From contig OZ243916.1 in the NCBI GenBank assembly GCA_965213675.1, forward strand, positions 3,776,001 to 3,840,000: DNA of 64,000 nt, written 5' to 3'. How positions within the stretch are numbered: the stretch's first letter is position 1; each line of letters starts with the position of its first letter. Under the pieces are notes generated by a model. It was not told the DNA's origin and did no database searches. It was given only the letters and a program-made list of their open reading frames with translations. Position numbers and translations under genes: made by a program. Positions 4,123 through 7,624 of the stretch are shown here, one piece after another. The DNA comes from an uncultured Candidatus Binatia bacterium. GTDB taxonomy: Bacteria; Desulfobacterota; Binatia; UBA9968; JAJDTQ01.

Positions 4123-4488
4123 ATGGCTGGGATGAGCCGGTTGTCAGCGTTGTGGGACTCGGTCTTGAACCTCATCCTCCCCGCGGGCGAACAACTGGCA
4201 ATTCTGGAAGCGGCTGGGGACAAGGCGGCTGTTGATGAGTTGGCGTTGGACTACGACGACGGCTTTCGCATGGTCAGCGACGGCGGGTTGCGGGGCCAAC
4301 TGACACACGGCGAGATCGCGGCGCTGATTGCCCTGGATCGGCAACTGGATCGCATGAGTGGCACAGGGAATGCCGACAACTGGACGGCAGAGGCGCTTCA
4401 CTCGTCCGAGTGTTGGAAGGAGGTCCGGAGGTTGGCGGCTGTTGCCCTCGCCAGCCGCCAGATCGCGAAAAAACGTTCTGCGGCTTGA
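4123..4488 (+). CDS. Hypothetical helical protein, 121 aa (SCO4402/immunity-protein-like)
   Basis: Intact ORF right after thiolase, lower GC3; DELALDYD...WTAEALHSSECWKEVRRLA pattern. Confidence 0.7.
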   Translation: MAGMSRLSALWDSVLNLILPAGEQLAILEAAGDKAAVDELALDYDDGFRMVSDGGLRGQLTHGEIAALIALDRQLDRMSGTGNADNWTAEALHSSECWKEVRRLAAVALASRQIAKKRSAA

Positions 4489-4508
4489 GGATAAGGGTGT
4501 GCGCGTAT

Positions 4509-5989
<1,481 letters not shown>

Positions 5990-5993
<4 letters not shown>

Positions 5994-6277
5994 TCAATGA
6001 TCTTCGGGACGCTGAGGAAGTCGTCGTCCCGGGCGGGGGCGTTGCGCAGCAAGTCCTCGGTCCGCGGCTGGTTGACGGCCCGGTCCGGGCGCAGGACGTT
6101 GACCACGTCCACCGCGTGGGACATGGGCTCGACGCTTTCGGTGTCGAGCTCGTTGAGCTTGTCCATGTAGTCGAGGATGCGGTCGAGCTGGCCGGTGAGT
6201 TGTTCCTGCTCGTCCGGAGTGAGGTCCAGGCGGGCGAGGGTGGCCACGTGCCGGACCTCTTCGCTGGTGATTTTCAC
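5990..6277 (-). CDS. gatC: Amidotransferase subunit C
   Basis: [15 protein letters not shown]...LNELDT...NAP...VPKII; overlaps gatA start by 4 bp. Confidence 0.95.
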
Positions 6278-6331
6278 GCCGATTTCTTATCATACGCCTC
6301 GAATGCCCGGCAAACGAACCTCCCCCGCACC

Positions 6332-6490
6332 CAGGACTCTTCAAAAGTCCGGTTTGCCCCTTTCCGTCATTCCCGCACCCCCGCCCCTGGATTCCCGCTT
6401 TCGCGGGAATGACGAAAAGGGGGCGCGGCAATGACAAAAGGGGCAAACCGGGAATGACGGAAAGGGAGCACCGGACTTTGAAGAGCCCTG
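6332..6490. mobile_element. 159-bp MITE with ~41-bp terminal inverted repeats and 10-bp target-site duplication
   Basis: Left end CAGGACTCTTCAAAAGTCCGG...TTTCCGTCATTCCC; right end reverse complement CAGGGCTCTTCAAAGTCCGG...TTTCCGTCATTCCC; flanked by CCCCCGCACC at 6322-6331 and 6491-6500. Confidence 0.88.
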
Positions 6491-7260
6491 CCCCCGCACC
6501 GCCCCGTCCCGGCCGCCTGCTGGCTCCGGAACGTCGTGGACCCGACGGCATCGTCTACGAAACGGATGCCCTCTCCCGGGGGTTCCGGTGCATCGCTGGA
6601 GTGGACGAGGCCGGGCGGGGGCCCCTGGCGGGGCCGGTGGTGGCGGCGGCGGTGGTGTTCGAGCCGGGCGCGTTCAACCCCGACATCAGGGATTCGAAGC
6701 TCCTGAGCGCCCGGAAGCGCGAGCGCCTGGCCGAGTGGATCAAGGAGCGGGCCGCGTCCTGGGCCGTGGGGGTGGCCGGTCCGGGCGAGATCGACCGCCT
6801 CAACATCCTGCGGGCGAGCCTCGTGGCCATGGCCCGGGCGGTCCGGGGCCTGATGGTCACGCCGGACTACCTCATGATCGACGGCCCTTACGGCATTCCC
6901 GCCGCCAGTCTGCTGGAGGACGGCGGCCCGTGGACCGCGGCGCCGGCGCAACGGACCCTCAAGGGCGGCGACCGGCTGTGCTTCTCCATCGCGGCGGCAT
7001 CCATCATCGCCAAGGTGGCCCGGGACCGCATGATGGTGGAGCTGGACACCCAATACCCGGAGTACGGCTTCGCCAGCCACAAGGGTTACCGCAGCCGCCG
7101 CCACTCGGACGCCTTGAACCGCTACGGCCCCTGTCCGGCCCATCGCCGCAGCTTCAAGCCGGTGCGGGAATCCCTGGAGCAGCGCGCGCCGCGCACCGTC
7201 CAGGCGGTGCCGGACGGCTTGTCGGCGCCGCTCTTTGGTGCCAGAAATAGGGATGGGTGA
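6454..7260 (+). CDS. rnhB: Ribonuclease HII (start codon lies inside the MITE; exact start uncertain)
   Basis: GVDEAGRGPLAGPVVAAAV, DSKLLS, IDRLNIL, SIAAASIIAKVARD, HKGY, HRRSF. Confidence 0.95.
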   Translation: MTEREHRTLKSPAPAPPRPGRLLAPERRGPDGIVYETDALSRGFRCIAGVDEAGRGPLAGPVVAAAVVFEPGAFNPDIRDSKLLSARKRERLAEWIKERAASWAVGVAGPGEIDRLNILRASLVAMARAVRGLMVTPDYLMIDGPYGIPAASLLEDGGPWTAAPAQRTLKGGDRLCFSIAAASIIAKVARDRMMVELDTQYPEYGFASHKGYRSRRHSDALNRYGPCPAHRRSFKPVRESLEQRAPRTVQAVPDGLSAPLFGARNRDG

Positions 7261-7624
7261 TGGCCGGAAGTCCCTGGGCAAGGCCGGAGAAGATCTCGCC
7301 GAGCGCTACCTCAAGCGGCAGGGTTACGCCGTGGTCGAACGCAACTACCGTTGCCCCCTGGGCGAAATCGACCTGATCGCCATCAACAGGCAGGCCGTGG
7401 TGTTCGTGGAGGTGAAGACCCGCAGGGTGGACACGTCCGGCGCGCCGCTGGAATCGGTCAACGCCGTCAAGCAGCGCCGGTTGAAGCGCGTCGCCCTTCA
7501 CTATCTCAACAAGCACCGGCTGCATGACCGGGACGTCCAGTTCGATGTCGTCGGAATTTCGCTCGGCTCGAATCCGCCGTCGGTTCGCCATGTGCGCCAT
7601 GCGTTTGATTTTTCGGAGCCGTAG
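7253..7624 (+). CDS. yraN: YraN/UPF0102 family endonuclease-like protein
   Basis: GKAGEDLA, NYRCPLGEIDLI, VFVEVKTR, FDVV; usual position after rnhB. Confidence 0.92.
   Translation: MGDGRKSLGKAGEDLAERYLKRQGYAVVERNYRCPLGEIDLIAINRQAVVFVEVKTRRVDTSGAPLESVNAVKQRRLKRVALHYLNKHRLHDRDVQFDVVGISLGSNPPSVRHVRHAFDFSEP

Follow-up and report, generated by a model that had tools for sequence, protein, structure and literature searches.

A recent, very probably ISAs1-type miniature element at the start of rnhB in an uncultured Candidatus Binatia bacterium, and a shared distance between ISAs1-type element ends and −35-like hexamers

In the available text of a review on transposable elements of the miniature inverted-repeat type (MITEs), the Correia elements of Neisseria are described as co-transcribed hairpin MITEs that are cut by RNase III and alter the expression of neighbouring genes, and the Rickettsia palindromic elements (RPEs) and other intragenic MITEs as small repeats inside coding regions that remain translated (PMC10969869). 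Here we report on a 159-bp MITE that interrupts the start of rnhB, the gene encoding RNase HII, in an uncultured Candidatus Binatia bacterium; the window, that is the whole stretch of DNA analysed, comprises 64,000 nucleotides (contig OZ243916.1, positions 3,776,001 to 3,840,000), and coordinates are those of the window unless a contig is named. The element resembles the Correia elements in size class (~100–160 bp) and differs from them in its ends. Correia elements make TA duplications, and to our knowledge no replacement of a start codon is known for them. An RPE adds a peptide through an in-frame insertion, whereas this MITE shifts the frame and requires a new start; in Neisseria REP2 and Borrelia IR repeats a location upstream of genes is part of the design, whereas the start codons found here are a by-product of AATGAC repeats in an element that breaks a gene. 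A literature search for MITE-supplied start codons gave an irrelevant top match. Taken alone, the event is an ordinary one in which a small transposon broke the start of a dispensable repair gene; its state before the insertion is known, and it offers a clean natural case that could show whether a bacterial gene survives a frameshift by re-initiation at starts borne on the insert. The more interesting result, which lies beyond what an initial annotation of the window from its letters had claimed, is a spacing of 18–19 nt between the ends of such elements and −35-like hexamers. If this rule reflects target choice, it would amount to a mechanism of promoter-directed integration for the little-studied ISAs1 family, one that could be tested in laboratory strains and would help to predict landing sites.

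The element, its target-site duplication (TSD) and its inverted arms are arranged as follows.

6332..6490, unstranded: 159-bp non-autonomous MITE, very probably ISAs1-type, with CAGG...CCTG ends and inverted arms and without a transposase open reading frame (ORF)
6322..6331, unstranded: left copy of the 10-bp TSD, CCCCCGCACC, present as a single copy in relatives
6491..6500, unstranded: right copy of the 10-bp TSD; in the X5 contig, 6321 is followed directly by 6491, with 10 letters shared
6332..6375, plus strand: left inverted arm, with the terminal sequence CAGGACTCTTCAAAAGTCCGG and the subterminal half-site CGTCATTCC; repeat pairs I2, I3 and I5
6449..6490, minus strand: right inverted arm, defined by repeat pairing

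That a MITE has inserted at 6332–6490 is virtually certain, and the arrangement of the flanking repeats is far beyond chance. The element is small, contains no internal ORF matching a transposase, is bounded by terminal inverted repeats and a perfect 10-bp TSD, and has related copies elsewhere. All coordinates that the initial annotation had given for a 159-bp, CAGG-ended inverted-repeat element with a perfect 10-bp duplication hold; the arms measure ~44 nt with one indel and comprise the repeat pairs I5 (14 nt, 93%), I3 (19 nt, 79%) and I2 (18 nt, 100%). Folded as RNA, the element is predicted to form a hairpin of −107.8 kcal/mol (z −6.2). An Rfam scan of 5900–7400 matched only microRNA-precursor hairpin models, all of them far under their gathering scores, and no known RNA family.

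The site is uninterrupted in close relatives. Forty-one related genomes were searched with the post-element protein and the DNA upstream of the matches was then inspected. In all 22 genus relatives with usable sequence (G015, G012 and G022 included) the site is uninterrupted and the 10-mer stands there once, as in the ancestral gene that had been reconstructed by removing the element and one repeat. In the three closest of them, G015, G022 and G012 (91–93% protein identity), the ATG is followed by a single 10-mer, or a one-base variant of it, and then by the rnhB codons. For the sequencing runs that cover the stretch, the data consist of contigs. In run X5, which represents a relative, the contig omits exactly 169 bases (6322–6490); the contigs of X1–X3, three runs of one study that may include the source sample and are therefore not independent, span both junctions with no difference. 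These X1–X3 contigs contain no joint across the element of the kind that precise excision would leave, which is uninformative since contigs drop rare variants. The RNA runs X18–X20 contain just 0.05–0.10 of the sampled words of the stretch. Judged from these comparisons of sequence, transposition of the MITE into this species appears to be recent.

The consequences for rnhB can be followed in the reading frames below.

6303..6434, plus strand: ancestral rnhB start and the current 43-codon out-of-frame ORF, ending at TGA 6432–6434
6431..6457, plus strand: mini-ORF of 8 codons, bounded on both sides by ATGA overlaps, one between its ATG and the first stop and the other between its stop and ATG 6454
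6454..7260, plus strand: rnhB as now called, 268 aa; ATG 6409 and TTG 6478 could also serve as in-frame starts
7253..7624, plus strand: yraN-like gene, sharing 8 nt with the end of rnhB

All 22 genus relatives have kept ATG 6303, the next 15 bases are likewise conserved within the genus, and the public gene models of the relatives begin at the equivalent of this ATG (MPGKRT or MSGKRT, 258–262 aa); the public model of this genome begins at ATG 6454. The insertion falls at rnhB codon 7–10 and its 169 added bases shift the frame, so that translation from 6303 stops at TGA 6432–6434 after 43 residues. Between the upstream stop and the catalytic GVDE motif, the only ATG, GTG or TTG codons in the rnhB frame are those at 6409, 6454 and 6478, all within the element, and none occurs between 6491 and the GTG of GVDE itself. 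The initial annotation had named ATG 6303 as the ancestral start, had proposed the frameshift and had located all usable in-frame starts within the element, and on each of these points it was right; its further proposal, that the element is tolerated on account of the start signals it carries, is a conjecture. Shine–Dalgarno (SD)-like motifs precede two of the candidates, AAGGGG ~10 nt before ATG 6454 and GGGAG 9 nt before TTG 6478. Three AATGAC units in the right half of the element create two ATGA overlaps: TGA 6432–6434 overlaps ATG 6431, and TGA 6455–6457 overlaps ATG 6454, which lies in the RNase HII frame. Two such stop–start steps could restore the rnhB frame, a relay role suggested by the order of the overlaps. 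The gene now relies on element-borne start codons, or is slowly dying. Further downstream, the yraN-like gene starts 8 nt ahead of the rnhB stop, and its translation may depend on ribosomes reading rnhB.

Elements of the ISAs1 family in general have CAGGG ends and 8–10-bp direct repeats. The element described here ends in CAGGA and CAGGG, and CAGGR ends combined with 8–10-bp duplications place it in this family; it is very probably an ISAs1-type MITE and not an IS4-type one. In the available part of the source, the ISAs1 insertion sequence (IS) ISArsp11 is given with CAGGGCTGATGCAAAGTCG as its ends and a direct repeat of 10 bp (PMC6305408, Table 3); both it and the MITE begin with CAGGG followed by a CAAAGTC-type motif, but the MITE lacks a transposase gene and its interior is built of NTS-type hairpins. 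In the family to which the MITE belongs we found 17 complete elements (this one and one from G003 included) of 78–251 bp with TSDs of 8–10 bp, nine being perfect 10-bp duplications, four matching at 9 of 10 positions and one measuring 8 bp; the remaining three rows, with 9-bp duplications, are one triplicated locus. A likely autonomous relative is found in the sister species G017, where a contig of 2094 bp (C14, L095) starts and ends with CAGGACTATCCAAAAGTCG and CAGGGCTTTCCAAAAGTCCG, which match the MITE at 17 of 20 positions, and encodes a protein of 594 aa scoring 181 bits against the ISAs1 transposase model NF033564 (cut-off 70). The left arm of the MITE resembles the ends of both this IS and ISArsp11. 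The G017 transposase also carries an N-terminal DruA-like domain (PF14236, 73 bits) ahead of the usual PF13808 and PF01609.

The initial annotation had pointed to the IS4 family as a source, and the 10-bp TSD does fit some IS4 subgroups, which make duplications of this length. Such an origin is highly improbable in view of the CAGGR ends and the 8–10-bp TSDs of the family, of the nearest ends, which belong to an IS whose transposase passes NF033564, and of the presence of ISAs1 transposases in 9 of 27 other genomes of the genus; no IS4 partner with these ends was found at the loci examined, and we have abandoned this attribution. The full element is present as a single copy in its own genome, where the NTS-like core alone is repeated, together with a few decayed relatives with similar ends. 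A search of that genome for further full copies or an autonomous partner yielded none, the end matches of 13–15 nt being at chance level or decayed relatives. With two mismatches allowed, five of the 28 genus genomes contain the end pattern, G022 having 31 matches; the end pattern of the G003 IS gave one match only and is uninformative. An exact 20-mer of the element end was present in 14 stretches of one Candidatus Binatia metagenome-assembled genome within a collection of genome contigs, and in two stretches from other phyla, two being roughly what chance would give in a collection of this size.

The position of the insertion was compared with that of other ISAs1-type elements in the genus. 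Flanks were read outward from the element end and their hexamers scored against TTGACA, using 72 distinct flanks, 43 of them at ends of this MITE family and the other 29 at those of a second ISAs1 family (G006/G020) whose end sequence is unrelated. At index 18, a hexamer matching at four or more of six positions is present in 18 of the 72 flanks (background 3.4%, P 2e-11) and one matching at five or more in 10 (background 0.57%, P 1e-11). Index 19 has 6 flanks, and no index from 0 to 69 other than 18 exceeds 6. Among the 28 left-end flanks of this MITE family alone, 7 have a TTG that begins at exactly index 18 (P 2e-8). In a third family, a 183-bp MITE in G013 with 51 distinct ends, the peak is at index 19 (16 of the 51 flanks, P 3e-11), and of 24 complete copies 15 carry the hexamer on one side or both. 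The spacing of 18–19 nt is thus common to three ISAs1-type families of this genus whose ends are unrelated. Insertion sites also have a higher promoter score than random positions (7.67 versus 6.05); the random control positions are mostly coding, and the position-specific tests were therefore relied on instead. A candidate shared promoter motif, GATAAGAAATC, was rejected, the genome having only 13 matches within one mismatch that form no family.

The copy in rnhB conforms to this habit on its gatC side, where the relevant features are the following.

5990..6277, minus strand: gatC (95 aa, GTG start), from the ORF list
6308..6313, minus strand: TTGCCG, −35-like hexamer of a putative gatC promoter, 18 nt outside the left end of the element and native in relatives
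6286..6291, minus strand: GATAAG, −10-like hexamer, 16 nt after TTGCCG and 8 nt before the gatC GTG
6255..6320, unstranded: genus-conserved block of 66 bp that includes both divergent starts and is conserved at synonymous positions too

Read outward from the element, the flank consists of the 10-bp TSD, 8 nt, TTGCCG (6313–6308), 16 nt, GATAAG (6291–6286), 8 nt and the gatC start GTG 6277. The gatC and rnhB genes are divergent, with just 25 bp between their start codons, and the element begins 11 nt past the end of the 66-bp conserved block. The position of this copy is likely to be explained by the promoter-distance habit of its relatives. The hexamers may constitute a working promoter from which a nearly leaderless gatC mRNA would be made. 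Neither GTG 6277 nor ATG 6303 has an obvious SD motif, and the gatC and rnhB mRNAs may both be leaderless, transcribed from overlapping divergent promoters. The initial annotation had suggested that the element may tune the gatCA promoter; this is not supported, both the 18 nt upstream of the hexamer and the 66-bp conserved block having been left intact by the element. One terminator-like site in 6100–6700 corresponds to chance level. Long ORFs antisense to gatA and gatC (for example 4144–5496 on the minus strand; one such frame, opposite gatA, measures 450 aa) are high-G+C artefacts, not genes.

The question remains as to what the recurrent distance means. Site-directed transposons such as Ty3, at Pol III promoters, and Tn7, at attTn7, insert at a constant spacing from some conserved landmark and thereby spare genes; the landmark here would be a bacterial −35 hexamer. 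Transposition of ISAs1-family elements may be directed at promoters, in such a way that the end comes to lie 18–19 nt upstream of the −35 hexamer and the TSD stops 8–9 nt before it, and we put this forward tentatively. With similar reserve, promoter-aimed insertion could be regarded as a bacterial ‘safe-haven’ strategy that normally spares genes and misfires at this locus because the gatC promoter lies within the first rnhB codons. In the limited literature covered, supplements excluded, we found no published description of ISAs1 target preference at promoters or at a fixed −35 distance, and the available main texts of a MITE review (PMC10969869) and a MITE census (PMC11602168) do not mention ISAs1.

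The distance might instead have nothing to do with promoter targeting, and reflect either a transposase preference for a sequence motif unrelated to transcription or the selective survival, after insertion, of those copies that are harmless or helpful to a nearby promoter. All insertions considered here are old survivors and not de novo events, as this explanation would have it, and a −10-like hexamer accompanies 11 of 24 hexamer-bearing flanks in the first two families and 5 of 17 in the third. Precision to 1 nt over three families with unrelated ends is, however, hard to obtain through selection alone. In the two-family set, −10-like hexamers at a spacing of 16–18 nt are enriched downstream of the hexamer compared with the 8 of 48 flanks that lack it (p 0.012); for the third family the corresponding figure without the hexamer is 3 of 31 (p 0.11). 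In addition, one orthologous promoter-like site is occupied at the same distance in G003 (L065) by a member of this MITE family and in G006 (L147/L148) by one of the second family, two independent insertions at a sequence that reads TAGACT or TAGACG, 18 nt, TAAAA. A cause other than targeting is consequently judged rather unlikely, and a choice of target by the transposition machinery may underlie the recurrent position.

We incline, with some reservation, towards an account in which a MITE at the gatC promoter left rnhB to be re-initiated from starts on the element. A transposase-less ISAs1-type MITE containing an NTS/dRS3 hairpin would recently have transposed into this species and made the 10-bp TSD typical of its family. 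It would have landed at the habitual spot of ISAs1-type elements in this genus, its end lying upstream of a TTGACA-like −35 hexamer at a distance of 18 nt, the hexamer in this case being that of the putative gatC(A) promoter. With 25 bp between the divergent start codons this spot falls inside rnhB, at codon 7–10, and the damage to rnhB is probably collateral to the positioning at the gatC promoter. The core of the gatC promoter would stay intact, and rnhB would retain an intact catalytic ORF translated at a reduced level from ATG 6454 or, less likely, from ATG 6409 or TTG 6478. Ribosomes starting at ATG 6303 would open the hairpin and stop at TGA 6432; re-initiation at the ATGA of 6431–6434 and then at that of 6454–6457 would together regain the frame. 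Such re-initiation is predicted from the layout of the overlaps.

Several findings weigh against this account. The ISAs1 transposase that would have mobilised the element was sought in its own genome and in G022, G015 and G012, and none was found. TTGCCG matches TTGACA at only four of six positions, and a simple sigma-70 consensus scan of 6100–6700 found no promoter. We recognised the relay post hoc; the distances between the AATGAC units dictate its frames, and by our estimate such an arrangement would arise by chance in ~1 of 9 cases. As regards rnhB itself, the candidate starts and SD-like motifs are buried in the −107.8 kcal/mol hairpin, rnhA is present in the genome, and the gene has accumulated replacements at an elevated rate: nonsynonymous and synonymous changes number 10 and 8 in this lineage, compared with 10 and 36 in three sister lineages (Fisher p 0.015) and with 17 and 53 in neighbouring genes of the same lineage (p 0.020). 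Among these changes are a D to G and a P to S replacement at columns invariant throughout the genus.

Continued production of RNase HII seems about as likely as not. The product scores 130 bits against PF01351 and 233 bits against NF000595 (cut-off 167), retains the catalytic motifs GVDEAG, IDG and ARD, and is encoded by 256 post-element codons that are open, with no stop or frameshift. Family profiles begin at residue 22–36 of the post-element protein, so that the N-terminus lies outside the domain and a new N-terminus should be tolerated. The gene is the only RNase HII-family gene of the genome. The same data bear on plain pseudogenisation, in which the insertion would have killed rnhB, the ORF would be intact only through the recency of the event, and the in-frame starts would be coincidental products of the AATGAC repeats. 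We regard this as possible, if somewhat doubtful. It would account for the excess of nonsynonymous changes over both sister lineages and neighbouring genes, for the two replacements at genus-invariant columns and for starts enclosed in a very stable hairpin, and the presence of rnhA would make the loss bearable, rnhB being dispensable in model bacteria. Yet 256 codons have remained free of stops and frameshifts with their catalytic motifs kept, and the ratio of 10 to 8 appears to lie under the ~3:1 expected for fully neutral change. Only 2 of the 10 lineage-specific replacements affect genus-invariant columns, which make up 47% of all columns (P 0.077), and the other 8 are in variable ones. 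Three in-frame starts, two of them with SD-like motifs, and the ATGA relay are moreover available to the gene.

Expression of rnhB could also proceed without translational coupling, either from a promoter inside the element or after an RNase III cut that exposes an SD-like motif together with ATG 6454 or TTG 6478. There are precedents in the available text of the MITE review, in which transcripts containing Correia elements are cut by RNase III at their inverted repeats and promoters are described on several MITEs (PMC10969869), and the long perfect stem present here is a plausible RNase III substrate; the 6100–6700 scan, in which no sigma-70-like promoter was found, tells against an internal promoter. 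We consider uncoupled expression improbable, and re-initiation by ribosomes arriving from ATG 6303 is retained in the account that we favour.

The centre of the element contains a hairpin motif of a described type.

6387..6414, minus strand: exact 28-nt NTS/dRS3-type hairpin motif, a regular-expression match to the published consensus CGTCATTCCCGCGMAVGCGGGAATCYRG

The 28-nt NTS consensus is that of Chenal et al. 2025 (PMC11893778). The NTS, dRS3 and Ssn-related motifs described in the available part of that source and the motif found here share this consensus and occur in many copies, whereas the hairpin of this locus lies within a DDE-type MITE with inverted ends and a TSD. The genome of the bacterium contains 31 exact copies of the NTS and 83 within one mismatch, and dRS3 has 102 matches. 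In the region of 2.85–2.93 Mb that is densest in NTS-like repeats, an open frame of 99 aa (G000 C1:2885325-2885540, L106; G000 being the genome of this bacterium) encodes a GIY-YIG domain (PF01541, 56 bits) and may be a candidate Ssn-type partner nuclease. In G022 (L085:120-1520), a copy of this MITE is itself interrupted by an IS110-family element of ~1.1 kb (bridge-RNA type, NF033542), the insertion point being the GTCATT/CCCGCG edge of the NTS hairpin. The composite retains the 10-bp TSD of the MITE, CCATTTGTCC. A similar junction is present in the genome of the bacterium itself near G000 C1:2440600-2440780.

Lastly, some features of the assembly and runs were noted. At 6521–6651, X1–X3 each contain a second contig of 131 nt with 7 differences and a depth similar to that of the main form, indicating that a second strain or close relative co-occurs. 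Small contigs of the assembly duplicate stretches of the main contig with few differences (G000 C8:5060-5310 and C1:2747400-2747650; C17:6560-6680 and C1:3971060-3971150), and one of these small contigs runs on into an IS3-family element. The duplicated contigs agree with the figure of 8% contamination or strain mixture for the assembly.

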